Positions 2,662 to 50,630 of a stretch of 64,000 nucleotides of DNA are shown in pieces; the stretch's first letter is position 1, and each line of letters starts with the position of its first letter. This DNA comes from Bacteroidales bacterium (GTDB lineage: Bacteria > Bacteroidota > Bacteroidia > Bacteroidales > UBA1715): contig JAZRVS010000045.1 of the NCBI GenBank assembly GCA_045599365.1, positions 37,375 through 101,374 of the forward strand. Reading direction: 5' to 3'. The position numbers were made by a program, and so were the translations under genes. The notes beneath the pieces are model-generated. The model did no database searches, was not told the origin of the DNA, and worked only from the letters and a program-made list of their open reading frames with translations.

Positions 2662-2670
2662 CCTCGTATA

Positions 2671-22275: not shown

Positions 22276-22289
22276 AATCACTCCATCAG

Positions 22290-22297: not shown

Positions 22298-22557
22298 CAA
22301 ATTTCATTTAAAATATAACAATTAAGACCTTTTTATATGCTTACAAAAGGGGAAAAATTATAAAATTACTTTTTGAATAAGTAGTTGTGAAAAAGCAATT
22401 TGTCTTTTTGAATGCATCGTGGTTAAATAAATTAAGGTTTTAAGTGCTAAATATTTGACTATAAACTAATAAATAAAATAATTTGGGCGTTAATTTCTAT
22501 AGTTGTCAATTTTTATTAAAATTTTAGTGTGGTTAAACTGTTATTCCCGCTATTTCA

Positions 22558-22565
22558 TATATTTG
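22558..22565 (+). promoter_or_regulatory. -7 promoter box TATATTTG for the GH13 gene
   Basis: TAnnTTTG match 19 nt upstream of ATG 22584. Argues against the track start at 22503. Confidence 0.5.
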
Positions 22566-22583
22566 CAAAATAGTGTGTATGAA

Positions 22584-24293
22584 ATGAATACAATAAATAT
22601 TTACCAGATTTTCACTCGTCTTTTCGCGAATCAAAATGAGACGAACAAAGAGTTCGGAACAATTGAAGAAAATGGTTGCTCTAAATTCAACGATATAACG
22701 GCAACAGCTTTAGAAGAATTAAAGAAGTTTGGCGTAACTCACGTATGGTACACTGGCGTCATTCGACACGCTTCTTGTACTGATTATTCAAAATATGGTC
22801 TTTCTGTGGACAATCCGCGTGTGGTGAAGGGTCGCGCAGGTTCTCCGTATGCTATAAAAGATTATTTTGATGTTGATCCTGATTTGGCGACGAATGTAAA
22901 AAATCGAATGAAAGAATTTGAGGATTTGCTTGATAGAACTCATAATGCAGGGTTGAAATGTATTATGGATTTTGTCCCAAATCACGTTTCTCGAGAATAT
23001 AAATCTGAAAATATTCCTACAGGAGCAACGTCTTTAGGTAGTTATGACGATGTTAATTGTGCGTTCTCGCCAAATAATAATTTCTATTATCTTCCTGATG
23101 ATGAACTTCATTTGCCAAATGATTTGGACATGCCGTACGTTGAAAATGCACCAATTTATCATGAATATCCTGCAAAAGTTACAGGGAATGACGTGTTTTC
23201 TTCGTATCCATCAAAAAATGATTGGTACGAGACAATAAAATTGAATTATGGCGTTGATTATCAAAATTATTGGGAAACACATTTTGACCAAATTCCTGAT
23301 ACTTGGATACGAATGTTGGAAATTCTCACTTTTTGGGCTAAAAAAGGTGTTGATGGTTTCCGCTGCGATATGGCAGAAATGGTTCCCGTTCAATTTTGGG
23401 GTTGGGTTATCCCACAAATCAAGGAAATTAATCCTGAGATAATTTTTATTGCGGAAATTTACAATCCTGATGCATACGCAAATTATTTAAATAATGGTCA
23501 TTTTGACTATTTGTATGATAAGGTTGGTTTATATGACACTCTTCGTTTAATTATTGAAGGAAAAGGTTCCGCTCGATACATTACAGATTATTGGAAACGG
23601 ACAGAGGGTTTTACAGGGAAATTGCTTCGTTTTTTGGAAAATCATGACGAACAGAGAATTGCATCTCGTTTCTTTGTCGGAGAACCAGAAAAAGCTGCAG
23701 TTGCAATGGCAGTATTGGCTACTCTCAATCCTGGACCTCTTATGTTGTATTTTGGACAAGAAATTGGAGAGAAAGGAATGGAAAAAGAAGGCTTTAGTGG
23801 TATAGATGGTCGAACAACGATTTTTGATTATTGGAGCCTGAAGGAATATAACAAATGGGTTAATGGAGGAAAATTTGATGGAGGAGGTTTGTCTCAATAT
23901 CAAAAAGATTTGCGCTACTCGTATGGTAAAATGCTTAATTTCCGCTTGCAATCCGATGTGTTACAGAATGGTGCTTTTTACGACTTAATGTGGAAAAATT
24001 ATGGAGGAAACCTTAATGCAGACAAAATTTATGCTTTCCTTCGTTACACCAATGAGAAAAAAATGTTGTTCGTGTTGAATTTTGATCAACAAGAATCTCA
24101 TTCATTCCGTCTTTTTATAGGAGAACATGCTCTGAATACAATTTGTTGTCCAAAAGAAGGAACATTAATCATAAAAGAAGAATTTGTTGAAGGTTTTGTT
24201 GACCAATTCCCTCTATCAGAAGTTCTTGAAAAAGGATTACCAATATTAATTTTGCCGAATTCGGTACTTATTTTTGAATTACAATGGAAATAA
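22584..24293 (+). CDS. alpha-amylase family (GH13) glycoside hydrolase, no signal peptide
   Basis: GH13 regions DFVPNHVS, GVDGFRCDMAEMVP, IFIAEIY and FLENHDEQR. Confidence 0.85.
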   Translation: MNTINIYQIFTRLFANQNETNKEFGTIEENGCSKFNDITATALEELKKFGVTHVWYTGVIRHASCTDYSKYGLSVDNPRVVKGRAGSPYAIKDYFDVDPDLATNVKNRMKEFEDLLDRTHNAGLKCIMDFVPNHVSREYKSENIPTGATSLGSYDDVNCAFSPNNNFYYLPDDELHLPNDLDMPYVENAPIYHEYPAKVTGNDVFSSYPSKNDWYETIKLNYGVDYQNYWETHFDQIPDTWIRMLEILTFWAKKGVDGFRCDMAEMVPVQFWGWVIPQIKEINPEIIFIAEIYNPDAYANYLNNGHFDYLYDKVGLYDTLRLIIEGKGSARYITDYWKRTEGFTGKLLRFLENHDEQRIASRFFVGEPEKAAVAMAVLATLNPGPLMLYFGQEIGEKGMEKEGFSGIDGRTTIFDYWSLKEYNKWVNGGKFDGGGLSQYQKDLRYSYGKMLNFRLQSDVLQNGAFYDLMWKNYGGNLNADKIYAFLRYTNEKKMLFVLNFDQQESHSFRLFIGEHALNTICCPKEGTLIIKEEFVEGFVDQFPLSEVLEKGLPILILPNSVLIFELQWK

Positions 24294-27527: not shown

Positions 27528-28889
27528 TTATCGTATTACCGAGAATGAAATACCTTTGATTTTTCGGTACATTTCCAATGAATACACATCCGTCATACCA
27601 GAGATGAAATCAAGTACAGAAAATATTCTTCGGAACGAGTCATCGTCTTCTGAAATGAGTTGAGAAGGTAATAAACTCAATAATTGTGAGGTATAAAGAT
27701 TTTCATCTTTTCGTAATGCTGCAGTAACAAATTCTTGTAATAATTCACTTAAAATTCTATGGCCAGCAACTTGAATTTCAATTACTTCGCGAGAATTATA
27801 AATACGTTTTGTTGCTAATTCTGCTAAATTCTTAAATGCTTCTTTTGGAGTTCCTTCCAACGATTCGGTAAGAGACGAAAAGAATTGACCATTCATAATT
27901 GCGTCATAGTTATTCCAAAATACAGAAACGCAATCGGTTATCAGTTTATTGATAGTTCGTGAACGAAGAATGACCATTTGTTCATTTTCATCAGTAATGC
28001 CTTTCAAAGCTTTTTCTAACGCTGCAAGTGCTTTTTTGTCTTCTTTTGAATCAAAAAATGCGAGTAATAATTTTTTTGCTTCTTCGGTAGAAATGATGCC
28101 AAGTCGATGAGCATCTTCAAGGTCAACAATTTGATAGCAAATGTCATCGGCAGCTTCCATTAAAAAAACTAATGGATGGCGACCATAAATAGTTTTGTTT
28201 CCGTTGTAAGATATCAGACCTAATTCTTTTGCAACTTTTTGTAAAATGGGTAATTCCGATTGGAAAACGCCATATTTGTGATATGGAGCTTTCCCAGAAA
28301 TGTAATCACTTGATGAACACGGATATTTTAGTAAGGTTCCAATAGTTGCATAGGTTAGTGCAAATCCGCCAGTTCTTCGTCCTACAAAATGATGTGTTAA
28401 CAACCTAAGAGTGTTGGCGTTACCTTCAAAATTGATTAAATCAAGATATTGTTCTTTTTTTATAAGAGAATCAATGTTGTTTGCATCAATTTCTTTGAAA
28501 TAGCGAGAAATTGCTTTTTCTCCAGAGTGTCCGAACGGTGGATTTCCCAAATCGTGAGCTAAGCAAGCAGAAGATACAATAGTTCCAATACTATCAAGTT
28601 GTTGTGGAGGCACGTCAATTCCTCGCTCAACAAGACCATTTGCAACCATATTTCCAAGCGAACGACCAACGGAAGCGACTTCCAAACTATGGGTTAGGCG
28701 GTTGTGAACGAAAATACTTCCAGGTAAAGGGAAAACTTGCGTCTTGTTTTGCAAACGGCGAAACGGAGAAGAAAAAATAATTCTATCGTAGTCGCGTTGA
28801 AATTGAGAACGAACATCTTGGGAGTGGGTTTCAGTTTCCATCCCTAAGCGTTTGGGTGATAATAATAAATTCCAATCAAGCATAGTCAT
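27528..28889 (-). CDS. dgt: dGTP triphosphohydrolase-like HD protein
   Basis: RLTHSLEVASVGR and CLAHDLGNPPFGH. 453 aa. Its ATG shares one base with the stop of the giant upstream gene (TAATG). Confidence 0.9.
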   Translation of the reverse strand: MTMLDWNLLLSPKRLGMETETHSQDVRSQFQRDYDRIIFSSPFRRLQNKTQVFPLPGSIFVHNRLTHSLEVASVGRSLGNMVANGLVERGIDVPPQQLDSIGTIVSSACLAHDLGNPPFGHSGEKAISRYFKEIDANNIDSLIKKEQYLDLINFEGNANTLRLLTHHFVGRRTGGFALTYATIGTLLKYPCSSSDYISGKAPYHKYGVFQSELPILQKVAKELGLISYNGNKTIYGRHPLVFLMEAADDICYQIVDLEDAHRLGIISTEEAKKLLLAFFDSKEDKKALAALEKALKGITDENEQMVILRSRTINKLITDCVSVFWNNYDAIMNGQFFSSLTESLEGTPKEAFKNLAELATKRIYNSREVIEIQVAGHRILSELLQEFVTAALRKDENLYTSQLLSLLPSQLISEDDDSFRRIFSVLDFISGMTDVYSLEMYRKIKGISFSVIR

Positions 28890-31800
28890 TATCTCATAAG
28901 CATTACACTTCCCCAGAATGGTTTAACTGTCTGTACTTTCCTCAAATTATCTTCTTCTGAATCTTCGTAAGTAACTTCAATCTTGTATCTGTACAAACCA
29001 GATTGCATCAATTTGTCGTTTACTTTACCATCCCATTCTGCGATTGGACAACCACTTTCGTTTACACCTTCAGAATAATACACAAGATTGTTCCAGTTGT
29101 CGTAGATCCATATTTTGAATGTACGACAGTTAAATCCTTTTGGCTTGAAAACTCGTACTTCAGATGCAGGATTTGTCGGACAGAATGCTGTTGGAACGAA
29201 CAATCCGTGTTCAACATCAACGAAGAAACTACCTCGAATAGAATTTTCACAACCATATTCATTGATTGCGGTCAATTCTGCAGTATAGTTTCCGTAACGA
29301 TATAGTTCTTCAAAAATCTTGTTGTTTTGTAAAACTAATGCGGTATCTGTTTTCCTTCCAAAATCCCAGAAATAATCTACGTGATATTCTTTCTCTGTCC
29401 CTTTATCGCTTACGATTTGTGGTTCGGAAAGGTTAGAGAATGTTACCACGCCTTCTTGACCAAGTGTTTCCCCGATAAATTGTGCATCAGGAATACCGAT
29501 AACTTCTACTGGGAATTCTGTCGTTCCAACACAGCCGTATTTATTGGTTTCTGCAACGGAAATTGTGTCAAATCCAATTGATGTCCAGTCAATAGAACGA
29601 ACAAATCCTGAAGAATATGAAGACAATTCTGTAGAAACTCTGTTACCTGTAACACTCCATTTTATAATATTTCCTTCTGCCGATTTTGTTACAACGTATG
29701 CTTCAGATTCACCTGCACACACTCCAGTTTCTCCCATAATTTTTGGCATCGGAATGTCGCTAATTAAGAATGAAATTTTTGCAGTGTCGCTTATACAATC
29801 TTTAATAGTTTGTGTCATATACACGTTGTAATTTCCTACTGCTGAATGCGGAGTAGGATATTCTTGTGATAAAGCAGAAACTACATTTTTATTCTCGTTA
29901 AACCAAATTGGATTTTGAGCTTTGGTAGTTAGAGTAACAGGTTGACCATCAAAGCAGAACGCATCTTTCGTTATTGTTGGTTTAGCAGGTTTTGGATTAA
30001 CAACATATTTTAGCGTTGTTTCTTTTCTTGTTTCAAAAGAACACGTAGCCACTGTTGTTCGAGCTTTGAAATTGTAAACGCCAGCTTTTTTGATTAAATC
30101 TTTTGGGACGTCTAATGTGTCACCAAGACATATTGTTGCTCCTGTAGGCGAAATCCACGAAACGCTTTCATTTTCAGATTGACGAGTAACAATCAATCGA
30201 CCAGGTTTGTCGTATTCACAGAGAGTATCTTGTTTCACAATAATTGCGAATGTTGGACCAGCAACAATTTTTACTTTCTTGGTAACTTTATCGCTCTCGC
30301 AACCAGCGTTGTCGGTTTGAGAGGCGTAGTAAACATATTCGCCTACTTCTGTGTCGGGAACGGTAAAGTATCGACCAGTGAAAATAGGTCGTCCAGTTGG
30401 ATTTTCGTACCAGTGAACCGTATTTGATGATTCAGCAATAATAACAGCCTGATTTCCTTCGCAAACTTCAATATCATTGGTTTGTTTGAAAGTCAAGTCA
30501 GCAGGTTTAGGATTAACAGTCAGAGACACTTTAGATGCTTCACTTTCGCACCCATTTTCAGTTTGAGTTACAAAGTATGATTGATTTTCTTTTTTATAAG
30601 GAGTGTACGAATTTCCAGTAGCAATTTGAATGTTTAATTCTTCATCAGAATACCATGTTGCAATTGCCTCTCCTTGTGTCAAGACTTCTAAATCAACAAT
30701 ATTGTTATAGTCGCAAATGGTTTGACTAACAGCCGTAGGTTTTGCAGGAATGCCATAAATTGTTGCTGTTGCTTCTTGTATAGGACTTGTACATCCATTT
30801 ATTGTTTGTGTGGCACCAATTGTTATATTTCCTGGTAATAAGTTAGATTCTGAATATGTAGTTCCTTCTCCAACCGAAATGCTATTCCTATACCATTGAA
30901 TATCAGTCCCATCAGCAGTGAAAAGAACATCGGTTCCTTCACATACGTTGTCAACATTAACTATTGGTGGAGCAGGAATTGCGTTTACTTGTATTGTTAG
31001 AGAAACTGGGTTGCTAGTACAATAATCAGATTGACGAGTGGCATAAATTGTGTAAGAACCCGCAGTTTCATACGATACGGTGTGTTGTGTTGCTATTGCG
31101 TCAGCAATTTTCATATCCTCGTTTGAATACCATAAGGCTTCAACATCAGCAGTCAAGGTTAATTCATCGTTTTCACAAATCGTTTTATTACCAGTAATTT
31201 TTGGTTGAGGAGTTGATTTCATGTCGAGAGTTATAAGCGTAGGTAGACCTTCGCAAACGTCATCGTATTGAGTAGCATAGTATTTATATTCACCTGCATT
31301 TGTAACATTATTTGGAGAGAAAGAATTGCCTATCGCAACAATTGTTGACATATCATTTTCATTATACCAACGAATTGTGTAATCATCTGATTCTAATGCT
31401 TCAAAAGTTGGCATAGTCTCATTTATACAAGCAATTATTTCGGTTTCAATAATTGTTGGCGCAGGAACTGGGCAATTGATGATGGAATATGTTAGACATG
31501 ATGGATCACTTGAACAAACGCCATCGTTTTCTGTAACACAATATGTCCACGAACCAACTACGTTTTCGTATTGGTGATTGATTGTCGCTCCAATAGCAAG
31601 GAGGTTGTTATCTTCGTCTATCCATGTATAGGCACCGCCATTGCCAGATTTTATAGAAACTTCAAATTTATCAGCAGTTACCAATTGAGTAATATTTGCA
31701 ACTTTTACAGGAGCAATTTCTCGAATTTCAATATTTTGTTTTAAACACATATTATCGTAACAATTGTTTGCTGCGCTAACAGCGGGACATCCTGTTACTG

Positions 31801-34800
31801 GGTCGTTGTAAGAATATGATAATTCATATATTCCTGCACCAAAATCTGTTGGGTCTATCTTTGTAATTGTTTGATTATCAAATTTGAATATAGTTCCAGC
31901 TAAATTTGATATAGGAGTTTTGATACCTTCATTGAAACAAATAATGTCATCAATTGTAATTTCAATTTCTGGTGAAGGATTAATTTTTAAAGTAACAGGT
32001 GTGGCAATTCCTTCACATCCATTTACTCCCGTTGTGGTTTGAGTTACAGTCCACGAATATGAACCAGCTTTACCTTGAACATCTGTTGGGGCAAAGCTGG
32101 CTTCGTTACTTATTAAAGCACCATTTTCATACCAATTGAAAATTGAGCCTTCGCCACTTGCTTCAAAAGTCGGGACTTCATCTGTTGCACAAATTTCAAA
32201 ATCAGCAATAGCAACTGTAGGCGCTGGAGTTGGACATTTAATACGATTAACTTGGATTGTAGCACATTCGCTTTCACAACCGAATTTGTCAGTTTGTGTT
32301 ACTCCATAATCTTCGCTTTTTTCTCCAACTAAACCAGTACTAAAAGTAGAACCTGTAGTAATTTTGTTTTTAGAAGTACAAGCATCGTACCAAGTAACTT
32401 TGTTTGTCCCATCAGGAGTAACTTTTAATATTGTTTCATAGTCTGTTGCTAATTGTGTTACTGGCGATGTTACTGAAAGTTGGTCAACATGATGAACTGT
32501 AAAGTCTTTTGTTGTTGTTGCTTTACATCCTGTTGGAGCTTCGTAATTTGCAGTAATTGTTATTGCAGAACCAATTGTTGTTGCTTCGGCAGGAGCAAAT
32601 GTATTTCCTGAAACAGCCTCGCCTGAAAATGAGAAAGTCCCACCTGTTATATCTGTTGATGTTGCAAGTGCTACTTCTTCGTCATAGTCACAGAAGTCTG
32701 TTTTTGCATTTGAAATAGAAATTATTGGATTTGGATTGATTACAACTCCGACTCGTGTTGCAACGCCTTCACAACCATTTATTCCAGTTGTTGTTTGTGT
32801 TACATTCCAATAATATGTTCCTGGTTTTCCCTTTGCAATATCATTTTTAAATGCTTCAGGATTGGTTGTACTTATTGGGTTACCAGTGTTTCCATCGTAC
32901 CATGTTAATGTTGCACCAGATTCTCCTTCAACAAAGAATGTAGGAACATTGTCCGAAGCACAAATTTCCGTCATTAGCACATCTGTAACAGAACTCAAAA
33001 TGTGTATGGTATCGGCTACGGTAACTGTAGGTGCAGGAGTTGGACAATCTATTACTGTGAACGTCATACATGCAGGTTCGCTTGTGCAGGTTCCATCACT
33101 TTCTGTTACGCAGTATTCCCATTCTCCTGCAACATTAGAATTTGGATGAGAAATTGAGTTTGCTGTGGTTTTCCCTCCATTTGGATCAGTCCAAACAAGT
33201 GTACCACCATTCCCAATTGCTGTGATTGACAAATCTGAAGATGTCATAACAATTGATTTGTCGCTTACTGAAGGTTTTTCAATTTTTCGAATTTCTATTG
33301 ATTGACTCTTGTCGTTTGAACAATTGTTAGCATCTGTATAAGCATATTTTAGTGTGTGATTTCCAACAGAAAGAGTATTTGTGTTGATTGTTGTTGCTAT
33401 AACGTCATCTATTGTTAATGTACCACCAACAGGAGAAAGAGTAGGAGATATTTCTCCGGTATTCACACATTCTACTGCATTTGTTGTCAGTGTGATGTCT
33501 GGAAGTGTATTTACTTTTGCTGATTTTACAACTTCCGTAGTACAGCCAGAAGTTGTTATAGTGTATGTAATATCAAATGAGCCAGCTACTTCGGGATTAA
33601 ATTCTGTTCCAGAAATATGTTCTCCTGCGAATGTACCTGTATTTGGAGTGACGTATTGTTTAAAATCAACAATATCTGCACCAACACACATCGGATTAGG
33701 AGTTGTAAATGTAACTTCTGGACGAGCAATTACATTTACATTGAATGTTTGAGAATTTGTACACGATTTTTCATCGGAATAAGTGTATGTAATTTCTGAT
33801 GAAGACCCTGCAGTAACTGCCGATGGATTAAATTTCGTATTTAGCGAGACTCCATCTCCAGTAAATTTACCGCCCGTTGGAGTCGCAAATGCAGACAAAT
33901 CAAATTCAGAGTCGTATTCACACTTATCAGGAACGGTTGTGATAGCGATTTCTGGTAAGGCATTCACAACAATAGATGCATTCTTCGTGTTTGTACATTC
34001 GTTTGCATCGGTATATGAATAAGTGAATGAATAAGTGCCTGAACTTGTAGGATTGAAACTTGTAATTTCGGCATTTGTGGCATCAAACACTTTACCATCT
34101 ACTTGTGATTTGAAAGTAGAAAAATCAATTTCTGCAGAACCAGCACATACTTCTGCTGTTGGAGAGAAACTTACAACTGGTAATTCATTGATTTTGTAGG
34201 TAATACTTGATTTACCACTTTCACAGTTTGCCTCAGTATCATATAATGAAACATAGAATGTATATGAACCTGCATCTGTTAGAGTAGGAACAAATGTAGT
34301 TGTTTCTTCTTCTTGAACAATAGCGTTATTGTAGTACCAACGAACATTTCCACTTCCTGCACTTACGGTAAGAGTTTTCTTTGCATTATCGGTTTCACCG
34401 TAACATACTGCTACAAGATTTTCAACAGGAATAGGTGCTTCTGCGGCACAACTAGATATTTCAAACGTAACAGCTGTTTTTTCGGAAACGCAACCACCAT
34501 CAGTACTTACTACATAATACGTGTATGTGCCAATTTTTCCCGTACTACCGTCTATAACAATAGATTCGTCAGGTGTGTATGATGCACCTGTGCCAACTTG
34601 TGTTGTTAAGGCTTCATCACTATACCAAATTTGATTGACTCCAGTAGCAGTTAGTGTTGGAACATTCCCTGATGTTACCTTTGTGTAAACTTTTGACACA
34701 TCAGTTCCGATAGGTTTGGCAGGATCATAAACGGTTATTGTCTTTGACGTTGAATTTGTACAAACGCCATCTGTATATTCGTAAGTTATTGTATATTCTT

Positions 34801-37800
34801 GACCAACTGTTGCATTTGCAGGAACGAATCCAGAAGTCAAATCAAGACTTGGAGTTGCAGTAAAACTACCACCAGTTTGATTGCCATTTAATGCAATAAC
34901 AGAACCATTTTTACAAGCAGTTGTTGGTAATACGAATGACACTTCTGGTTTATCTTGAACAACAATTGTTATTGTTTCGTAGAGAGAACAACCATTAACT
35001 TCATAATTATACGTTATCTCGTGTGTGCCAACACCAGCAATTGAAGGAGAGAAAACACTGCCCGTTATTCCATCACCTGTAAACGAACCAGTTCCGCCTG
35101 TTGGCGTTACGGTTGCATTTAAAGTAATGTTTTCGCTGTCAACACAAACTGGATTGACAGGATCTATGGCAATTGTTGGTATAGGATTTACAACCACTGT
35201 TGCTGTCCCTGCTTCGCTGGTACAATTACCGACTTTCACTATTACAGAATATTCTCCCGCTGCTGATGCAGTAGTACCACTGATAGTAGGGTTTTGTTCT
35301 GTAGATGTAAAACTATTTGGTCCTGTCCAAATATACGATCCTTCAGAAGTCGTTCCCAATGTCAAATCGGAACCAGCACATACAGGAGAATTTGTTGTAA
35401 TTATCGGTGTTGTTGGTGGTTCAAGGGTTTTTACTTCCAAATCGGCGCGTTCACTTTCACAGCCGTTTACCATTTGTGATACGTAATAGTGTACGCTACC
35501 TACCGTTGTTGTTACAGGAACAAGCGATGTATATTTTGTGATACCAGTCTCACTTGTGTACCAAGAAAGATTTGTACCTTCGGCAGTAACCTCGTCGGTA
35601 ACTGTTTCGTTTTGGCAATATTGAATAGGAGTTGTTATTTCTGGTTTTTCAGGTATTTCGTAGTAGGTTACGATAGTTTTACCTGCTTCACTTGGACAAT
35701 CTGTCACTGTAACTATTACACTATACTCACCGATAGTTGACGCAGAAGCCGTAATAGTAGGATTTTGTTCTGTTGATGTGAAGCTGTTTGGTCCTGTCCA
35801 TGCGTATGTTGCATTTGTTATTGTTGGAACCGACAAGGTTATTTCTTCTCCATCACATTGATGGCCATCATTTGTTGGCATTGGTGTTGCTGGAAGAGGA
35901 TTGACAACAATTGTCGTGGTTTCTGCCTCGCTGTAACAATTACCAACTTTTACTATCAACGAATATTCTCCAGCGGAGGTTGTGGTAGCACTCGAAATTT
36001 CTGGATTTTGTTCTGCTGATGTAAAACTATTAGGTCCAGACCAAATGTATGTACCTTCAGCGTCAGTAGATAATGATATATTAGAACCAGCACATACAGG
36101 AGAATTTGTCGTGATTTCTGGTTTTGATGGTGGTTCTAAAGTTTTAACCTCCAAATCTGCACGTTCACTTTCACACCCATCAATAGTTTGCGACACATAG
36201 TAGTGTACACTACCAACCGCAGATGTTGAAGGTACTAATGTTGTAAATTCAGTTGCTCCAGTTTCCGTTGTGTACCATTTCAAAGCAGTTCCTGTTGCAG
36301 AAACTTCATCTGTTACAGACTCGTTTTGACAATATTGTACAGGAGTTGTAATGGTAGGTTTGTCTGGAATAGCATTGACAACTATGGTTGCTTCACCAGC
36401 TTCACTTTTACAGCCATCTTTGCTAGTAACAACAACGCTATATGTACCTGCATTGTCAGCATCAGCCGAAGTGATTTCTGGTTGTCGGTCTGTTGATGAG
36501 AATGCATTTGGACCTTCCCAAGCATAAGTGGCATCTTCCATAAGAGGAGCAGAAAGAGTAATCTTGTCTCCCACACAATACGGAGAATCTGAAGTGATTG
36601 TTGGTGTTGTTGGTCTTGGATTTACAACAACATCAATAGCTGCACGAGGTCCTTCGCAACCATTGGCAGTTTGAGATACGTAATACGTTGTTGTCCCAGC
36701 TGTTGTTGTAGAAGGTGTTATAGATGTTTGACCCGTTCCACCTGTTGCAGAAGTGTACCATTTTAATGCCGTTCCTATCGCTGTTAATGCCGTTGCTGTT
36801 TCTCCCTCGCAGTATGTAATAGGAGTTGATACTGTTGGTTTTGGAGGGCAACTAGCACCACATTCTAACACAGACTGTGCACGAATTTCGTCATTTGCAT
36901 GACCCAACAATTCCACATGAGCCTCATTAATTACTTTTTCGCTGCATTCCTTAACCTTTGCTGTTACACTAACTGCATATTTTTTCCCAAACGGGATAGG
37001 ATTGTCCATTCCTTGTTCTTTGGTCCAAACCACTTTCCCATCCGTATATGTTCCCCCATCGGTTGCACTGACAAATTCGAGTTCCGAAGGAAAATCATCA
37101 ACAATCTTCAAATTATACGCATAATCGGTATGAACATGAATTTTTGAATACGTATGATTTCCATGTGCAGGGCTATTAAAGCCAAACTTACCTTCTTTAA
37201 CAGGGACATTATCAACCGTAAACGGAGCGGAAGCAGATGTATCTGCAGAATTCCACAGACGAAGAATACTTCCTGATAAATCTATCGCAAAATGAATATT
37301 TGCGGAACTTTCAGCAACACGTTCTGTTTTACTTCCGTACGTAACAATTAGGACACCATAATCCTTTTTCACCGTTACTTTTTGGTCGCCTCGGAAGATG
37401 AAAGTTGCTTCAGCATATTCAGTCAAAGAGGCACCAAACTCAACAAATATATTCTTACAAGTTGAGTTATTATACATTGCTGTTGTTCCCGAATTATTTG
37501 TGACTTTTCCTCCAGAGACACTTCCTCCAGACCAATCACTAGCATTCTCTCCAGCATTATTATTTATATATCCGTGAGTTTGTTCATATTCAAGATCAAA
37601 CGTCACTACATCTCCAACAGAGACAGTTTCTACATCGGAAGTTTTTACTAATGTAGTCGGTTTTACTGGTTCTGGGACTTTTGCACATGTTACTGTAATC
37701 GTCGCTGTATCTGCTATTGGAGAATTCAAATCAGCATAAATCCAAGCTAAATTATCAATATCCTCGTCAGCAGATTGGCATTTTGCCCCAGACGGGAAGT

Positions 37801-40768
37801 TTGCAGTCGCAGAATAGGTAATACTACCCTTCTGTTTGATTTGCAACATCGGAATTTTCCATTCCACAACATCTCTGCCATCAGCAATTTTATAGTTACG
37901 CCAGGTTGCACCACTACTTGCCAAAGGACAGCTACCTTGAAAAGCCACAAAAGTTAACCCTTTTGGCAAAGTATCTACAATAACCACATTTTCGGCATCA
38001 CGACCTGCCATTGGACCTGTACCCAAAATACGACGCCACGTGTAACCATCAAATTCTTCCACCAATATATTTGGGATTGTATATTTTGGAGTTTCACAAA
38101 TTGAAGGATTGTAGGTATTGACGACTCTTTCTATTGATTGTCCAGTTGTCGGGTCAATTTCCTGCCAACTTGGGGTTACAGGATAATAGTTACCATCATC
38201 TGCATCTTTTGCACTTGCATTCCATGACCAGTCATCGGTATAGTTTGTAGAAGACCAATCGCTTGGATACAAATAACCAGCAACACGCAATGGCTCGGCA
38301 CCTCCACGATGCACGCGAGAACCCATACCATAGTAGTTACTGATATGTCCAGTACTTGTTACCAACAACGGTGCAAAACGCAAAATCATACGTTGGTTCC
38401 ATTTACCATAACTATCACTTCCTTCAACCACTGTTTCATGACTAACTGAAATTTGATCACTTGCAGTTCGTTTACCTTCGTAAATTGCAGTGTACCAACC
38501 CCAACCAGCTCCGCCAGCACTAGAAAGTTTTTTCATACTGGCATCATACAAATAGTACGAAATTCGATAGTTCCCATAATTGATATATGGCTCTATAGCA
38601 TCATTGTACAAACGGAATTTCAGCCACATTTGCGACCCATCTTGCGTATTTGCAAATGCAACCCCAACACGCGGACGACCACCATCCAACCAGCCAGCCT
38701 CCGATGAGTTTTCAAAGTTGATTGTATAATTTACAATTGCTCCTGGATTCGCCTGTTCACGGTCTGCTGTCTTTTCTATTAAAAGAGAACGCTTTATTAC
38801 ATCTACACAGTTACGCTGCATTGTTGGCGTAATTGCATTTGGATACTCGTTTGAAGTCCAACCCAAACCATTTGAGCAAGTAATTTCAGCTGTTGTACAA
38901 TATCGTCCTGAAGCCTCTGGGCCAATTTTTACATCATACGACACACGTCCTTTTGTAACATCCAATCCATCAGTTTGAAAGCCAGGAACGGTTCCAACAG
39001 TCCACGTAACGGTATGACTTGTTGCATCATAAACGCCGCCATTAGTTGCACTCACAAAAACAAAATCATCGGGAACGTATTCTACAATTTTAACACCTTT
39101 TGCATCAACAGAACCATAATTTCGATAATCCAAATGATACGTTATAACATCGCCTGTGTAGGCACACGACACACTATCTTCAACGACACGATATATCTTC
39201 ATGTTTGGTTGAGGAACCATTTTACTCGGAGCTTGATGGTTTCCCGTTGCTATCAACATTCCCAGTAAACGGAAAAATCCGTGGAAATAAACAGGCACAC
39301 TGGTAAGATAACCATCCCCACCAGTTTTTACATCCCATTCTATGTTACATTGGCGATACAACTGACCCAGCAATTCCAAATCCTGAGCAGCAACCGCAGA
39401 AGGAGTTCCACACGCAGGAACCCAGTTCAATGTAAACGCAGACTTTGGGAAATAACCGTTCGGTTCAAGATCCCAGTTCAATGTACTTGGACCTTTGTAT
39501 GTAACAGAGGGGCCTCCACCATATTCGGTACACGCAGCGCCGCTGCCCCAACCTTGAGGATTATTCATAAACCCTGAAAATTGTTTTGCTGCATTCAACT
39601 CATAGGTGTTTCCACCATCAACTACTTTGTGGGTTGTTGGATTCCATGAGTACGTAGGATTTCCGTGCCAAACATAATTCAAAGCAGTACGCCAAGGTGA
39701 ACGGAAACGACCACCCTGATTACCAGCAGACATTGTGACCACGTTTGCGTTACTAACCGAAGCAACTTCACCTACGAAAATATTCGTACCCGATTGACTC
39801 ACCCAATTTCCAACCATCCAATCGCCCGAAGCCTCGGCTCTACGATATTGTTCACGTTCCCAAGCAGGAGAATAGTCCAAATCCAATTTTTCCAACAAAT
39901 CATGAAACTCGCGAAAATAACCTGTTGCCAAATAGTCAGTATGCATTTGCTGTGGACCACCATATTCAGGATACTTTTGTATACCATCTTCTACGTAGTA
40001 ATTGGCAGCCTGACTTGCCCAACCCGTAATTTCATTCCAAGTATCACCATTTTTCATATACCCATCAAAACCAATCTCACCAGTATTATTACGTTGAGGA
40101 TTTTCGGTTGGGAAACGAGTACTCATAGCAACAAGACCGCGAATCACATCAATCATTTCTTTCTTGTACGAAATCATATTTCCACGCGAATCACGAACAC
40201 CCATATCGTCGCCCCACTGCATCCAAGCAACATACAAAGCAAGTGCAATATCAACGTCACCATCTGTAGCAGAGTTTGCATTGTCCTTCAAGGCATAATC
40301 CCCATAGGCATAATTAGGCTCAAACACTACGCCATCAATGTAACGTGGCTGTTTTACACGGGCCTTATCATGAACACACATCCACAATCCATCAAATGAA
40401 GTTTTATCACCCATGAGTGCCGCAGCCAAAAGAGAATATCCATCACCTTCACGACAATCGTACGGACAACCAATATTACCGCGGATATATTTCACGCCTC
40501 CGACGGCATCGCCAGTATAAGTCCATTCATTTGCAAAAATCTGATAGGCATCACGAATATCCTGCTCCATTTCCGCATGAACAACACCTTCGGGATTACG
40601 GGTTCCAAGGTTATCAAGGCGATGCGAATCGCCCCACGAATAATCTAAAAACTGAGGGAATGGGAATCGTGGATTCCCAGAATTGATATGTACGGTAACT
40701 TCATTTTGAGCGTGAAGACCTAATACTAATAAAATAGAGCCTAAAAGACTTAAAATTTTATATTTCAT
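28889..40768 (-). CDS. giant (3,959 aa) secreted multi-domain protein: signal peptide, GH8-like domain, DUF11-like modules, ~30 Ig-like domains, PKD-like domain, T9SS type-B C-terminal domain
   Basis: A single ORF with no interruptions. The signal peptide is MKYKILSLLGSILLVLGLHAQ. Domain evidence is given in the sub-features below. Confidence 0.9.
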   Translation of the reverse strand: MKYKILSLLGSILLVLGLHAQNEVTVHINSGNPRFPFPQFLDYSWGDSHRLDNLGTRNPEGVVHAEMEQDIRDAYQIFANEWTYTGDAVGGVKYIRGNIGCPYDCREGDGYSLLAAALMGDKTSFDGLWMCVHDKARVKQPRYIDGVVFEPNYAYGDYALKDNANSATDGDVDIALALYVAWMQWGDDMGVRDSRGNMISYKKEMIDVIRGLVAMSTRFPTENPQRNNTGEIGFDGYMKNGDTWNEITGWASQAANYYVEDGIQKYPEYGGPQQMHTDYLATGYFREFHDLLEKLDLDYSPAWEREQYRRAEASGDWMVGNWVSQSGTNIFVGEVASVSNANVVTMSAGNQGGRFRSPWRTALNYVWHGNPTYSWNPTTHKVVDGGNTYELNAAKQFSGFMNNPQGWGSGAACTEYGGGPSVTYKGPSTLNWDLEPNGYFPKSAFTLNWVPACGTPSAVAAQDLELLGQLYRQCNIEWDVKTGGDGYLTSVPVYFHGFFRLLGMLIATGNHQAPSKMVPQPNMKIYRVVEDSVSCAYTGDVITYHLDYRNYGSVDAKGVKIVEYVPDDFVFVSATNGGVYDATSHTVTWTVGTVPGFQTDGLDVTKGRVSYDVKIGPEASGRYCTTAEITCSNGLGWTSNEYPNAITPTMQRNCVDVIKRSLLIEKTADREQANPGAIVNYTINFENSSEAGWLDGGRPRVGVAFANTQDGSQMWLKFRLYNDAIEPYINYGNYRISYYLYDASMKKLSSAGGAGWGWYTAIYEGKRTASDQISVSHETVVEGSDSYGKWNQRMILRFAPLLVTSTGHISNYYGMGSRVHRGGAEPLRVAGYLYPSDWSSTNYTDDWSWNASAKDADDGNYYPVTPSWQEIDPTTGQSIERVVNTYNPSICETPKYTIPNILVEEFDGYTWRRILGTGPMAGRDAENVVIVDTLPKGLTFVAFQGSCPLASSGATWRNYKIADGRDVVEWKIPMLQIKQKGSITYSATANFPSGAKCQSADEDIDNLAWIYADLNSPIADTATITVTCAKVPEPVKPTTLVKTSDVETVSVGDVVTFDLEYEQTHGYINNNAGENASDWSGGSVSGGKVTNNSGTTAMYNNSTCKNIFVEFGASLTEYAEATFIFRGDQKVTVKKDYGVLIVTYGSKTERVAESSANIHFAIDLSGSILRLWNSADTSASAPFTVDNVPVKEGKFGFNSPAHGNHTYSKIHVHTDYAYNLKIVDDFPSELEFVSATDGGTYTDGKVVWTKEQGMDNPIPFGKKYAVSVTAKVKECSEKVINEAHVELLGHANDEIRAQSVLECGASCPPKPTVSTPITYCEGETATALTAIGTALKWYTSATGGTGQTSITPSTTTAGTTTYYVSQTANGCEGPRAAIDVVVNPRPTTPTITSDSPYCVGDKITLSAPLMEDATYAWEGPNAFSSTDRQPEITSADADNAGTYSVVVTSKDGCKSEAGEATIVVNAIPDKPTITTPVQYCQNESVTDEVSATGTALKWYTTETGATEFTTLVPSTSAVGSVHYYVSQTIDGCESERADLEVKTLEPPSKPEITTNSPVCAGSNISLSTDAEGTYIWSGPNSFTSAEQNPEISSATTTSAGEYSLIVKVGNCYSEAETTTIVVNPLPATPMPTNDGHQCDGEEITLSVPTITNATYAWTGPNSFTSTEQNPTITASASTIGEYSVIVTVTDCPSEAGKTIVTYYEIPEKPEITTPIQYCQNETVTDEVTAEGTNLSWYTSETGITKYTSLVPVTTTVGSVHYYVSQMVNGCESERADLEVKTLEPPTTPIITTNSPVCAGSDLTLGTTSEGSYIWTGPNSFTSTEQNPTISGTTASAAGEYSVIVKVGNCTSEAGTATVVVNPIPTIAIDPVNPVCVDSENITLNATVTPTGGTGSFTGDGITGSVFSPSIAGVGTHEITYNYEVNGCSLYETITIVVQDKPEVSFVLPTTACKNGSVIALNGNQTGGSFTATPSLDLTSGFVPANATVGQEYTITYEYTDGVCTNSTSKTITVYDPAKPIGTDVSKVYTKVTSGNVPTLTATGVNQIWYSDEALTTQVGTGASYTPDESIVIDGSTGKIGTYTYYVVSTDGGCVSEKTAVTFEISSCAAEAPIPVENLVAVCYGETDNAKKTLTVSAGSGNVRWYYNNAIVQEEETTTFVPTLTDAGSYTFYVSLYDTEANCESGKSSITYKINELPVVSFSPTAEVCAGSAEIDFSTFKSQVDGKVFDATNAEITSFNPTSSGTYSFTYSYTDANECTNTKNASIVVNALPEIAITTVPDKCEYDSEFDLSAFATPTGGKFTGDGVSLNTKFNPSAVTAGSSSEITYTYSDEKSCTNSQTFNVNVIARPEVTFTTPNPMCVGADIVDFKQYVTPNTGTFAGEHISGTEFNPEVAGSFDITYTITTSGCTTEVVKSAKVNTLPDITLTTNAVECVNTGEISPTLSPVGGTLTIDDVIATTINTNTLSVGNHTLKYAYTDANNCSNDKSQSIEIRKIEKPSVSDKSIVMTSSDLSITAIGNGGTLVWTDPNGGKTTANSISHPNSNVAGEWEYCVTESDGTCTSEPACMTFTVIDCPTPAPTVTVADTIHILSSVTDVLMTEICASDNVPTFFVEGESGATLTWYDGNTGNPISTTNPEAFKNDIAKGKPGTYYWNVTQTTTGINGCEGVATRVGVVINPNPIISISNAKTDFCDYDEEVALATSTDITGGTFSFSGEAVSGNTFAPAEATTIGSAITITANYEAPTGCKATTTKDFTVHHVDQLSVTSPVTQLATDYETILKVTPDGTNKVTWYDACTSKNKITTGSTFSTGLVGEKSEDYGVTQTDKFGCESECATIQVNRIKCPTPAPTVAIADFEICATDEVPTFEASGEGSIFNWYENGALISNEASFAPTDVQGKAGSYSWTVTQTTTGVNGCEGIATPVTLKINPSPEIEITIDDIICFNEGIKTPISNLAGTIFKFDNQTITKIDPTDFGAGIYELSYSYNDPVTGCPAVSAANNCYDNMCLKQNIEIREIAPVKVANITQLVTADKFEVSIKSGNGGAYTWIDEDNNLLAIGATINHQYENVVGSWTYCVTENDGVCSSDPSCLTYSIINCPVPAPTIIETEIIACINETMPTFEALESDDYTIRWYNENDMSTIVAIGNSFSPNNVTNAGEYKYYATQYDDVCEGLPTLITLDMKSTPQPKITGNKTICENDELTLTADVEALWYSNEDMKIADAIATQHTVSYETAGSYTIYATRQSDYCTSNPVSLTIQVNAIPAPPIVNVDNVCEGTDVLFTADGTDIQWYRNSISVGEGTTYSESNLLPGNITIGATQTINGCTSPIQEATATIYGIPAKPTAVSQTICDYNNIVDLEVLTQGEAIATWYSDEELNIQIATGNSYTPYKKENQSYFVTQTENGCESEASKVSLTVNPKPADLTFKQTNDIEVCEGNQAVIIAESSNTVHWYENPTGRPIFTGRYFTVPDTEVGEYVYYASQTDNAGCESDKVTKKVKIVAGPTFAIIVKQDTLCEYDKPGRLIVTRQSENESVSWISPTGATICLGDTLDVPKDLIKKAGVYNFKARTTVATCSFETRKETTLKYVVNPKPAKPTITKDAFCFDGQPVTLTTKAQNPIWFNENKNVVSALSQEYPTPHSAVGNYNVYMTQTIKDCISDTAKISFLISDIPMPKIMGETGVCAGESEAYVVTKSAEGNIIKWSVTGNRVSTELSSYSSGFVRSIDWTSIGFDTISVAETNKYGCVGTTEFPVEVIGIPDAQFIGETLGQEGVVTFSNLSEPQIVSDKGTEKEYHVDYFWDFGRKTDTALVLQNNKIFEELYRYGNYTAELTAINEYGCENSIRGSFFVDVEHGLFVPTAFCPTNPASEVRVFKPKGFNCRTFKIWIYDNWNNLVYYSEGVNESGCPIAEWDGKVNDKLMQSGLYRYKIEVTYEDSEEDNLRKVQTVKPFWGSVMLMR
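28892..29206 (-). other. T9SS type-B (gliding-motility-associated, TIGR04131-like) C-terminal sorting domain, aa 3855-3959
   Basis: VPTAF...FKPKGF...FKIWIYDNWNNLVYYSEG...WDGKVNDKLMQSGLYRYKIEV...GSVMLMR follows the type-B CTD pattern. The usual FTPNGDGxND motif reads FCPTNPASE. Confidence 0.65.
29207..29500 (-). other. PKD-like domain, aa ~3757-3854
   Basis: VTFSNLSEP...YFWDFG...YGNYTAELTAINEYGC follows the PKD signature WDFGDG...Y...G.Y.V.L.v.n..GC. Confidence 0.55.
31208..33280 (-). repeat. higher-order protein repeat: three-domain module repeated ~2.7 times (aa ~2497-3187)
   Basis: Linker CPTPAPTV occurs at aa 2575 (nt 33044-33046) and aa 2845 (nt 32234-32236), and CPVPAPTI at aa 3099. 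Spacing is 270 and 254 aa. Flanking domains are collinear (GNGG...W.D...YCVTE.DG.C; PTF...WY...QTTTG.NGCEG). Confidence 0.7.
35168..36361 (-). repeat. higher-order tandem duplication: 238-aa (714-nt) three-domain unit, 1.67 copies (aa 1470-1867)
   Basis: Copy A is aa 1470-1707 (nt 35648-36361). Copy B is aa 1708-1867 (nt 35168-35647). By hand count, 115 of the first 157 aligned residues are identical. The antisense track ORFs 35025..35486 and 35982..36200 end in near-identical peptides 714 nt apart. Confidence 0.85.
36857..39223 (-). other. DUF11-like repeat modules with large insertions, aa ~516-1304
   Basis: YTGDVITYHLDYRNYG...IVEYVPDDFVFVSATNGG, NPGAIVNYTINFEN, VIVDTLPKGLTFVAF and KIVDDFPSELEFVSATDGG are DUF11-type strands. 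The insert at aa ~1070-1215 (GKFGFNSPAHGNHTYSKIHVH) looks like a lectin/jelly-roll. Confidence 0.45.
39224..40705 (-). other. glycoside hydrolase family 8-like domain, aa ~22-515
   Basis: CREGDGYSLLAAAL (Glu107, nt 40448-40450) sits in place of the SEGxxYGM acid motif. SATDGDVDIALALYVAWMQW (ATDGD is aa 167-171, nt 40256-40270) fits the PROSITE GH8 pattern except at one position (Tyr for [LIVMG]). Confidence 0.65.
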
Positions 40769-40846: not shown

Positions 40847-40854
40847 CAAATTTA
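40847..40854 (-). promoter_or_regulatory. candidate -7 promoter box (TAAATTTG on minus strand) for the giant gene
   Basis: Plus-strand CAAATTTA is the reverse complement of TAnnTTTG, 79 nt upstream of ATG 40768. Confidence 0.4.
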
Positions 40855-41173: not shown

Positions 41174-41245
41174 GGCTTCGTAGTTCAATGGATAGAATGG
41201 TAGTTTCCGGAACTATAGATTAGGGTTCGATTCCCTACGAAGCCA
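41174..41245 (+). tRNA. tRNA-Arg (anticodon CCG)
   Basis: Cloverleaf built by hand. Acceptor GGCTTCG/CGAAGCC, D arm GTTC-AATGGATA-GAAT, anticodon arm GTAGT-TTCCGGA-ACTAT, T arm TAGGG-TTCGATT-CCCTA, discriminator A. 72 nt, CCA not encoded. Confidence 0.9.
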
Positions 41246-41253
41246 CAAAAAAT

Positions 41254-41288
41254 AAAACGCAAATTAGATTATCTCTAATTTGCGTTTT
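41254..41288. terminator. bidirectional hairpin terminator between tRNA-Arg and feoAB
   Basis: Perfect 15-bp stem AAAACGCAAATTAGA / TCTAATTTGCGTTTT with a 5-nt loop and T-runs on both strands. Confidence 0.8.
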
Positions 41289-41290
41289 TA

Positions 41291-43911: not shown

Positions 43912-44616
43912 ATGGCAGATTTAAGTGGACAAAAAAATAGGAGTTATGAGTTGAAAAAGCTCAAGGCACAGTGTGTTGCTGAAGAAAATAAACGTTTTGT
44001 TACATCGCAAAAGTATCGAAAACAAGGTTCTGTTGATGCTGCTCCAGGAAATTCTGGGTTGAAGTCAACGAAAGGTGTTGTCTATTTCTTTATTGTAAGT
44101 GCTGATGACGAGCAGTCAAAATCGTTACAAGAGCAGTTCAAAAGCACAAAAAGTTATAAGAAAACGAAAGCATTTTCTACAATGGAATCCGCACGTGATT
44201 ACATCAAAAACTCACGTTTTGCGAAAAATTCTATAATTATTTTGATATGGGATGTTGCTACCGATGCGCAAAAAGCTCAACAAGAACATGCTGTTTTGGA
44301 AGAAATGAAAAAACTTGACCCATGTTTGGAGGTTATGGCTCTTGCACAAAATGTACAACAAATTCCATCGGGAGCAATAGATTATAGTATTGCAAAGACA
44401 AATGATTTGTTTAGCAAAATTATTCAAAATACTACGTGGTCTTTGCGAGAACAAGATCGTATTCGTAAACAAGTTGAATCTAAACAGTTCATTAAAGCTG
44501 CAATTTTGATTTTTGTTGGTTTCTTTGTCATTCTTTTTGCGATAGATTTTATTTCAGGTGTGATGTCTGAAAACTATCGAGGAATACTTGGAATTGTTCC
44601 TATACCACAACCATAA
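43912..44616 (+). CDS. hypothetical protein with receiver (CheY)-like domain and C-terminal TM helix
   Basis: By-eye alignment to CheY: FFIVSADDE (acidic pocket), IIILIWDVATD (phospho-acceptor Asp position) and GAIDYSIAK (conserved Lys). C-terminal hydrophobic stretch AAILIFVGFFVILFAIDFISGV. No output domain. Confidence 0.4.
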   Translation: MADLSGQKNRSYELKKLKAQCVAEENKRFVTSQKYRKQGSVDAAPGNSGLKSTKGVVYFFIVSADDEQSKSLQEQFKSTKSYKKTKAFSTMESARDYIKNSRFAKNSIIILIWDVATDAQKAQQEHAVLEEMKKLDPCLEVMALAQNVQQIPSGAIDYSIAKTNDLFSKIIQNTTWSLREQDRIRKQVESKQFIKAAILIFVGFFVILFAIDFISGVMSENYRGILGIVPIPQP

Positions 44617-44630
44617 TTTGTAGAGTAACG

Positions 44631-45281
44631 ATGAATAGTTGGGAAAAAATCATGGATATTCCCAATAAATATTTAAGACGAGGTGCGAATTTTCGTGTCT
44701 CGTCTTTTTTGTTGATAGCGATACTACTTTTTTTGAGTTGTATTGCTTCTGCTCAAAATTTTCAGGGAGGTTTTTTAGCTGGCATTACCACAAGTCAAGT
44801 TGATGGAGATGAACATAGTGGTTTTCACAAATGTGGAGGTTTTGGTGGAATTTTTGTAACGCGAAATACACAATCTACGTTACCAAATCATATTTTTGAA
44901 TTGACATTTTCTCAAAAAGGGGCTTCGTTACCAGAGTCAAATAGCATACCTAAATTTAGCATAACAATTGACTATATTGATGCAACATATCTCTGCGATG
45001 TTGTTCCAAATCATTACTTTGAGAAATTTCCTCAAGGTATTCATATTCAAATAGGAACGAGTGTTTCTACGAATTTATATGAAAAAGCCTTGGTTGATAA
45101 AGTAAAACAAAGTTCAAGAGATTTTAATCGTATAGATTGGGCGGCACAAATTGGAGTAAGTCAGCAAATAAATTTGTTTGATATTGAATTACGAGCATTA
45201 CATTCAGTTGTTCCCAATAAGGGAAGATATTACAATTTTGCTTTGATTCTATGTGTACGAGCAACTGTGTTTGGAAATTAG
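44631..45281 (+). CDS. outer-membrane beta-barrel protein (OMP_b-brl_2-like)
   Basis: Signal peptide ending ASAQ, then alternating beta-strand pattern GGFLAGITTSQVDGD...GGFGGIFVTRN. 216 aa. Confidence 0.5.
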   Translation: MNSWEKIMDIPNKYLRRGANFRVSSFLLIAILLFLSCIASAQNFQGGFLAGITTSQVDGDEHSGFHKCGGFGGIFVTRNTQSTLPNHIFELTFSQKGASLPESNSIPKFSITIDYIDATYLCDVVPNHYFEKFPQGIHIQIGTSVSTNLYEKALVDKVKQSSRDFNRIDWAAQIGVSQQINLFDIELRALHSVVPNKGRYYNFALILCVRATVFGN

Positions 45282-50607: not shown

Positions 50608-50615
50608 TAATTTTG
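50608..50615 (+). promoter_or_regulatory. -7 promoter box TAATTTTG for the DUF1599 gene
   Basis: TAnnTTTG match 16 nt upstream of ATG 50631. It overlaps the track start at 50613, which I therefore reject. Confidence 0.45.
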
Positions 50616-50630
50616 CAAAAAATCAATATT

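Follow-up and report, generated by a model that had tools for sequence, protein, structure and literature searches.

The stretch of DNA analysed here, a window of 64,000 nucleotides from a Bacteroidales contig (JAZRVS010000045.1), contains a giant open reading frame (ORF) whose predicted product consists of a head with the glycoside hydrolase family 8 (GH8) fold, a conserved beta-sandwich neck, a very long stalk of immunoglobulin (Ig)-like modules and a divergent C-terminal domain (CTD) resembling the type B sorting domains of the T9SS (type IX secretion system). The divergent GH8-like head is always fused to the conserved neck, and this unit is widespread, occurring in short, long and giant proteins. 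The head of the window protein falls within a monophyletic clade which has swapped the canonical region of the catalytic base but kept the catalytic acid. The clade thus represents a natural experiment, the outcome of which would be either a fourth GH8 base position or an enzyme fold turned adhesin tip. For the protein as a whole, we put at about even the chance that it is a passive, T9SS-exported and surface-anchored fibril, the head and neck of which engage the beta-linked glycans of fibre well away from the cell, any hydrolysis being possible only via a relocated base (Glu334). The ORF, the fold, the conservation and covariation of residues, the spread of the family and the location and affinities of the CTD are shown by the analysis. 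T9SS export, surface anchoring, the class of substrate and the role of Glu334 as base are points that we infer. The family bears on the means by which fibre-attached Bacteroidota lacking polysaccharide utilisation loci (PULs) engage insoluble polysaccharide, and belongs to a class of proteins whose role has openly been described as unknown since at least 2018.

The gene and the regions of its product, numbered in amino acids (aa), are as follows.

28889..40768, minus strand: whole gene, 3,959 codons plus stop, with colinear orthologues.
40706..40768, minus strand: signal peptide, aa 1-21 (MKYKILSLLGSILLVLGLHA, followed by QNE), read from the sequence; aa 2-21 form a helix in the model.
39209..40705, minus strand: GH8-fold head, aa 22-520, from Pfam, PDB sequence matches, an AlphaFold2 (AF2) model and Foldseek.
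36839..39208, minus strand: neck, aa 521-1310, DUF11-type and other beta-sandwich domains, from Pfam, NCBIfam, AF2 and Foldseek.
29504..36838, minus strand: stalk, aa 1311-3755, 21 Ig_7 modules and about nine other beta-domains, from an iterative hidden Markov model (HMM).
29219..29503, minus strand: PKD-like module, aa ~3756-3850, a weak label with approximate boundaries and a position taken from the earlier note on this DNA.
28892..29218, minus strand: C-terminal domain, aa 3851-3959, a divergent, type-B-like (CHU_C) putative T9SS sorting domain with sub-threshold matches to PF13585 and TIGR04131.

The earlier note had described a single ORF of 3,959 codons, and the ORF is indeed present and uninterrupted. 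Cleavage of the signal peptide, which we infer to occur after aa 21, would leave Gln as the N-terminus of a mature protein of 3,938 aa, with a mass of 425.7 kDa and an isoelectric point of 4.46. An assembly chimera or a product of collapsed repeats was considered and ruled out. The gene contains only one pair of internal DNA repeats (300 nt at 72% identity) and none that are near-identical. Six orthologues from other metagenome-assembled genomes (MAGs; loci L001, L002 and L004 to L007), the closest relatives with long reading frames, are colinear with it over ~3,860 aa at 58-69% identity, the alignments reaching the end of the fetched DNA of each locus, and the library of representatives holds two full-length proteins, of 3,979 and 4,028 aa, which over their last 110 residues share 68% and 65% identity, respectively, with the window tail. 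Since the independently assembled orthologues are colinear and near-identical repeats are absent, an assembly artefact is very unlikely. The sources of these orthologous MAGs include horse faeces and yak, buffalo and sheep gut, which places the source organism among the uncultured Bacteroidales of herbivore guts, near the Paludibacteraceae.

The modelled head has the GH8 fold. Pfam Glyco_hydro_8 (PF01270) matched at 33.8 bits against a cut-off of 24, the match covering only aa 106-188 (profile positions 54-132 of 341). A sequence search of the PDB with aa 1-532 returned GH8 chains only, the best being the chitosanases 7CJU and 1V5C (E ~1e-6), and a profile of 27 family heads brought the E values down to 5e-18 (5XD0) and 1e-17 (CelA, 1CEM), the matches spanning the whole barrel. 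The AF2 model, which was built on the family alignment (pLDDT 87.5, pTM 0.90), comprises twelve helices arranged as an (alpha/alpha)6 barrel with insertions. When this model was compared with the PDB using Foldseek, ranks 1-44 were all GH8 structures; superposition on CelA and on the chitosanase ChoK gave target-normalised TM-scores of 0.72-0.74 at 15-17% identity. The GH8-type head proposed in the earlier note is therefore upheld by a Pfam match above the cut-off and by the modelled fold, and neither a lack of GH8 matches nor a different fold was encountered. Both of the GH8 motifs that had been quoted were found: CREGDGY begins at aa 105, and ATDGDVDIALALYVAWMQW, which conforms to the PROSITE GH8 pattern except at Tyr179, begins at aa 167.

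A scan of one genome per GTDB species identified 187 relatives of the head among species representatives, the closest being from horse faeces and rumen MAGs. Hosts of the family include herbivore-gut Paludibacteraceae, other Bacteroidales, Aquimarina and Cytophaga aurantiaca (48% identity), to which protein searches add MAGs outside the Bacteroidota, namely Chitinispirillia, Fibrobacter and 'Goldbacteria'. Six proteins from MAGs labelled Chitinivibrionales/Chitinispirillaceae, Fibrobacter/Fibrobacteres or 'Candidatus Goldbacteria' (P0005, P0010, P0040, P0057, P0071 and P0076) combine the head with a DUF11 neck. The members fall into three size classes: ~1,080 aa, with type-A-like tails (several have a precomputed PF18962 label on the tail); 2,000-2,900 aa, with classic type B tails; and >3,400 aa, the group to which the window protein belongs. 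Since the family occurs in three sizes, the stalk is a variable spacer.

The neck (aa 521-1310) is common to all members of the family, the ~1,080-aa forms among them, and contains the family-invariant motifs EYPN..TM.RNCVD, WL.GGR, NDA.E.YIN.GNYR.SY and LVEEFDGYTWRRILG. DUF11-like modules had been proposed to follow the head, in agreement with which the whole-protein Pfam scan gave a DUF11 score of 49.5 bits, and a DUF11-type repeat was matched by NCBIfam also. The AF2 model of the neck is all-beta (pLDDT 86.4), and Foldseek related it only to generic Ig-like domain chains (PrgB, antigen I/II C-domains, alpha-2-macroglobulins and integrin legs). A carbohydrate-binding module (CBM) or second enzyme within the neck was looked for but not found: a PDB sequence search with aa 637-1310 returned only noise, and the Foldseek matches were of this generic kind. 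Between orthologues, identity is 71-92% in the head, mostly 71-96% in segments of the neck and 49-70% in the stalk; the last neck segment (aa 1011-1310) is 54-61% identical in four of the six orthologues. Since the head and neck are far better conserved than the stalk, selection acts on the N-terminal unit.

Residues of catalytic interest were located by reading equivalences from the alignment of the family profile with CelA, and their conservation was counted over 77 family heads.

40448..40450, minus strand: Glu107, aligned with the CelA proton donor Glu95; 77 of 77 heads.
40262..40264, minus strand: Asp169, aligned with CelA Asp152, in the ATDGD motif; 77 of 77 heads.
39932..39934, minus strand: Tyr279, aligned with CelA Tyr215, which positions the nucleophilic water; 76 of 77 heads.
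39767..39769, minus strand: Glu334, at the foot of a beta-hairpin within the loop joining helices 7 and 8; from conservation counts and the model.
39707..39712, minus strand: Gly353-Arg354, at the N-terminus of helix 8; residue 353 aligns with the CelA base Asp278, the GH8a proton acceptor.

The roles of the GH8 catalytic residues, including that of the water-positioning Tyr, have been described (PMC5407803). Glu107 and Asp169, which had been singled out in the earlier note, are thus invariant, and Arg356 aligns with CelA Arg281. The designation of the head as catalytic is uncertain: the fold, the acid and Asp169 agree with it, but at the position of the CelA base a proton-acceptor carboxylate of the GH8a type is absent and Gly353 is found instead, followed by Arg354. 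The family norm is Glu353-Asp354: position 353 is Glu in 59 heads, Gly in 16 and Thr in two, and position 354 is Asp in 61, Arg in 15 and Ala in one. Glu occupies position 334 in exactly those 15 sequences that have Arg354; in the remainder the residue there is Gly (61 heads) or Gln (one). Covariation of Gly353/Arg354 with Glu334 is perfect, and the 15 sequences, which range from 50 to 91% in identity and include all three protein sizes, form one clade in a neighbour-joining tree. The cleft-side Trp335, present in 47 of the other heads, is lost in all 15, and eight of the 15 fixed changes specific to the clade fall within aa 331-362. In the model, helix 8 comprises aa 356-368, and the connection between helices 7 and 8 contains a hairpin (335-338/344-347).

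Glu334 is accordingly placed as a candidate, on grounds of sequence conservation, either for a relocated base or for the salt-bridge partner of Arg354. The acceptor of subfamily GH8b, ChoK Glu309, lies in the loop between helices 7 and 8 as well. A beta-motif of the same kind as the hairpin lines the GH8 cleft (PMC5407803), and that paper cites Adachi et al. for a division of GH8 into three subfamilies by the varying position of the proton acceptor. On one reading, the base has shifted to Glu334; on the other, the head no longer hydrolyses, and Glu334 and Arg354 make up a structural or binding pair. The latter would make the protein a non-catalytic adhesin, in which the clade head, with its Arg354-Glu334 salt bridge, provides a lectin-like grip on plant fibre whilst canonical paralogues do the cutting; we regard this as possible, though the less probable of the two. 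The loss of both acidic residues at the base position, and of Trp335 also, speaks for such a tip, and since inactive GH8 mutants crystallise with bound substrate (the PDB titles include E70A, D263 mutants and a catalytic-mutant xylohexaose complex), the GH8 fold can bind without cutting. However, Glu107, Asp169 and Tyr279 are invariant throughout the clade despite its range of identities, which is expected of an enzyme but not required of a lectin, and the new Glu334 is itself invariant and situated in a cleft-forming loop.

The arrangement of family genes in other genomes bears on the same question. Tandem pairs were found in nine Paludibacteraceae loci (L008 to L011, L016, L019, L024, L036 and L075), with a canonical GEDxR paralogue that has a type-A-like tail directly upstream of a classic type B form of 2,600-2,900 aa. 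The upstream paralogue, located at about 6.4-9.9 kb of the fetched loci, is ~1,080-1,110 aa in eight of the nine pairs and 2,141 aa in L036. In five loci the long form is the Gly353-Arg354/Glu334 variant, paired with an upstream paralogue of ~1,080 aa that keeps GEDxR and AGW, which fits a division of labour between a gripping and a cutting protein. In the remaining four (L016, L019, L024 and L036), however, the long form has the canonical motif, and protein length does not, therefore, track loss of the base.

The stalk extends from aa 1311 to 3755. Pfam matched Ig_7 in eight stretches (228.7 bits in total over the protein), and an iterative HMM seeded on one Ig_7 module recognised 21 modules, mostly with two Cys each, the gaps between which leave room for ~9 further beta-domains; the earlier count of about 30 Ig-like domains is consistent with these figures. 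At ~4 nm per Ig-like domain, an assumed value, the stalk would be ~100 nm or more in length. A PKD-like domain had been placed immediately before the tail; Pfam does match PKD in the protein, at 29.6 bits, but the best stretch is aa 1640-1697 and not aa ~3756-3850. As judged by sequence conservation, the stalk behaves as a spacer and the N-terminal unit is the most constrained part of the protein.

The tail was matched by both PF13585 (CHU_C; 19.4 bits against a cut-off of 27) and TIGR04131 (18.6 bits against 35) at aa ~3874-3936, the two models covering the last ~60-65 residues with E ~1e-3. Members of 2,000-2,900 aa have a classic type B tail of the form ...FTPNGDG...V.IYDRWG...WDGTYNG...YWY...GHFTLIR, and the corresponding window sequence is the divergent VPTAFCP...IWIYDNWN...WDGKVND...YRYKIEV...GSVMLMR. 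An exhaustive search identified 1,591 relatives of the window tail, nearly all at the extreme C-terminus of large proteins. In each of ten relatives tested TIGR04131 was the best CTD model, always below its cut-off at 18-30 bits, and a fragment 75% identical to the tail carries a precomputed PF13585 label. The type B assignment of the earlier note thus agrees with the position of the domain and with TIGR04131 as the best-matching model of the relatives, but both curated thresholds are missed; membership of a divergent, type-B-like class of sorting domains is plausible. One of the tail relatives, P0155 (182 aa), combines a TIGR02532 prepilin-type N-terminal cleavage/methylation domain (28 bits) with the tail-related domain, an odd combination for a putative T9SS signal.

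[quoted passage not shown] In C. hutchinsonii, type B cargo stays on the outer membrane without lipopolysaccharide-dependent anchoring (PMC12860637). The window protein might alternatively be released as a soluble giant enzyme, its CTD removed after T9SS export, as is most of the C. hutchinsonii protein CHU_1075. Its CTD is atypical and no cognate PorP/SprF gene adjoins the gene, both of which would accord with release. However, the CTD of CHU_1075 is of type A and the window tail is type-B-like, and the type B cargo studied to date is probably uncleaved and is held at the surface in C. hutchinsonii (PMC12860637, PMC10202324), such that we consider release improbable.

With surface anchoring preferred, the following sequence of events can be envisaged. 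The signal peptide would direct the protein via the Sec pathway to the periplasm, and the divergent type-B-like CTD would then mediate export by the T9SS. By analogy with other type B cargo, retention at the outer membrane would be through a PorP/SprF-type protein encoded elsewhere in the genome. The ~30 Ig-like modules would act as a passive spacer, and the GH8-fold barrel and conserved beta-sandwich neck would form the working end, which in the gut of herbivores engages the beta-linked glycans of plant fibre. Catalysis, if retained, would employ Glu107 as donor, Asp169 and Tyr279, together with a relocated base for which the clade-invariant Glu334 is the candidate.

Several observations weigh against this scheme. 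No CBM was recognised in the neck by the Pfam scan, the PDB sequence search or Foldseek. The CTD lies under both curated cut-offs, and a profile made from 22 of the family's classic type B tails gave it a score of only 10 bits. Neither a PorP/SprF gene nor T9SS core genes, porK, porL, porM, porN and sprA included, were identified among those ORFs of the 64 kb that were scanned. Finally, with the canonical base residue absent and Trp335 also lost, the head may not hydrolyse at all.

The earlier note had gone further, in envisaging a filament akin to SprB that is moved by the gliding machinery and drags a glycanase over polysaccharide. The presence of gldD, gldF and gldG in the window, each above its equivalog cut-off, was confirmed, and a weakly GldE-like ORF was found also.

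2641..3249, plus strand: gldD, NCBIfam equivalog, 220 bits.
21553..22281, minus strand: gldF, NCBIfam equivalog, 306 bits.
19816..21552, minus strand: gldG, NCBIfam equivalog, 505 bits.
46033..47130, minus strand: weakly GldE-like ORF that scores 131 bits (cut-off 376) and more probably encodes a CNNM/CorC-type transporter than GldE.

The gld genes indicate that the organism may glide, the type-B-like tail is a feature shared with SprB, and at 426 kDa with ~30 Ig-like domains the protein is in the size range of SprB. Additionally, a cluster of genes for large GH8 proteins in C. hutchinsonii lies beside an SprP-like gene and has been suggested to function in gliding and/or cellulose use (PMC6247017). 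Nevertheless, homology to SprB is ruled out by the lack of SprB repeats: the whole-protein Pfam scan gave no match to PF13573 at E <= 0.01. No sprF/porP, sprC or sprD adjoins the giant gene or family members in 12 other loci; for PorP/SprF at those 12 loci, none was evident from ORF lengths, N-terminal sequences and recognisable purB-like or ABC-transporter-like genes, no profile scan having been applied. The immediate neighbours of the giant gene are housekeeping genes. Since most of the ~900 type B proteins catalogued are inferred not to be motility adhesins, the type B tail says nothing about propulsion, and since an identical type of head occurs on ~1,080-aa proteins with type-A-like tails, the function of the head is not dependent upon a track. 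It should be said that RemA, which has a type A CTD, is a motility adhesin also, and that it is not known how the gliding machinery takes up its adhesins (PMC10202324). The labels 'SprB-like' and 'track-propelled' find no support, and a propelled filament of this sort is considered very improbable. The same low standing is given to a variant in which the fibril is loaded onto the gliding machinery and its remodelled head (Gly353-Arg354 with Glu334) is pulled over the glycans of plant fibre, where it would serve as a moving enzyme or ratchet. Were this so, gliding would be coupled mechanically to the contact-dependent degradation of fibre. The presence of gldD, gldF and gldG and the type-B-like tail are compatible with this variant, but nothing specific speaks for it.

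The earlier note knew of no characterised protein with this architecture. This stands only in a narrow sense, as the architecture is already known from Cytophaga and is not new: CHU_1075, CHU_3440 and CHU_3441 of C. hutchinsonii and six similar large GH8 proteins of Sporocytophaga myxococcoides are comparable. CHU_1075 is a 2,690-aa protein in which a GH8 domain of ~400 aa and a galactose-binding-like domain are combined with Ig-like folds and a CTD (Taillefer et al. 2018, PMC6247017); the CTD is of type A, and most of the protein was found released to the medium. On cellulose-grown cells of Cytophaga and Sporocytophaga, large T9SS proteins with GH8 heads are abundant, with a role that is stated to be unknown, and CHU_3440 and CHU_3441 are clustered with a SprP-like gene, for which a connection with the T9SS, with gliding and/or with the use of cellulose was suggested (PMC6247017). 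Proteins of this kind have been located either extracellularly or at the outer membrane (PMC6247017, PMC12860637). Both were listed with TIGR04131 CTDs in a 2026 paper (PMC12860637).

The comparison with these proteins was made from published descriptions. In common with them, the window protein has an N-terminal GH8 domain that accounts for a small part (less than half) of its length, followed by Ig/PKD folds and a putative T9SS CTD, and since C. aurantiaca carries a 48%-identical homologue (L056), homology of the window head to some CHU proteins is likely. However, the CHU_1075 GH8 domain shares 32% identity with CelA, compared with ~15-17% for the window head, which is ~100 residues longer. 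The window protein is larger (3,959 aa), derives from an anaerobic gut member of the Bacteroidales, is not flanked by an SprP/PorP-like gene and is without the canonical base. The head family is set apart from the CHU giants by its much greater divergence and by the obligatory neck, and the window protein by the extreme length of its stalk and its remodelled base region.

With CelA (1CEM/1KWF, GH8a), ChoK of Bacillus sp. K17 (1V5C) and the Paenibacillus beta-1,3-1,4-glucanase (5XD0) the head shares the barrel and the aligned donor Glu, ATDGD Asp and Tyr. It differs from solved GH8 structures in its length (~500 aa with large insertions, as opposed to 360-390), its fusion to a ~790-aa neck and the occurrence of Gly353 in place of CelA Asp278. 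SprB of Flavobacterium johnsoniae resembles the window protein in being a giant repetitive cargo with a type-B-like CTD in an organism that has gld genes; the window protein, however, has neither SprB repeats nor a sprC/sprD/sprF operon, and bears an enzyme-fold head. A further parallel is offered by the T9SS carbohydrate-active enzymes (CAZymes) of 'Ca. Paraporphyromonas polyenzymogenes' (PMC5831590), another herbivore-gut member of the Bacteroidota, this one from the rumen, in which export of fibre CAZymes is by the T9SS and not PUL-based. Those proteins are enzyme-dense (GH5-GH5, GH8-CBM6-GH11) and match the type A CTD model TIGR04183, whereas the window protein has a single head and ~30 Ig modules. 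A literature search for GH8 combined with DUF11 found no paper.

Elsewhere in the window, no second member of the family was found, and several ORFs are without profile matches.

43912..44616, plus strand: ORF of 234 aa, no NCBIfam or Pfam match.
44631..45281, plus strand: ORF of 216 aa, no NCBIfam or Pfam match.
48244..50565, plus strand: ORF of 773 aa, no NCBIfam match.
50613..51176, plus strand: ORF of 187 aa, no NCBIfam match.
61982..63610, minus strand: ORF of 542 aa, no NCBIfam match.
22503..24293, plus strand: alpha-amylase-family (GH13-type) gene, adjoining gldF/gldG.

The GH13-type gene is the sole other glycoside-hydrolase-type gene identified among the window ORFs scanned. The features closest to the giant gene are as follows.

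27528..28889, minus strand: HD/HD_assoc phosphohydrolase of the dGTPase type, the start of which overlaps the stop of the giant gene (TAATG, 28887..28891).
40847..40854, minus strand: TAAATTTG, ~79 nt upstream of the ATG of the giant gene.
41174..41246, plus strand: tRNA-Arg(CCG), within the 520 bp that separate feoAB from the giant gene.

Downstream, the HD-domain gene is followed by a flippase-like gene, and the TAATG overlap suggests co-transcription of the giant gene with a housekeeping gene. Upstream are the tRNA-Arg and feoAB, with a hairpin and T-run directly past feoB at ~41245..41290. The octamer TAAATTTG fits the Bacteroidota -7 promoter consensus, TAnnTTTG, a short motif that AT-rich DNA will often match by chance. 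When the 10 kb upstream of the giant gene were compared with their counterparts, also of 10 kb, in seven related loci (L001 to L007), no meaningful match was obtained. The G+C content of the giant gene is 0.36-0.43, against ~0.32-0.37 for most of the window, one other 2-kb block of which reaches 0.40. Taken together, the tRNA, the higher G+C content and the lack of synteny hint at relocation or acquisition of the giant gene.

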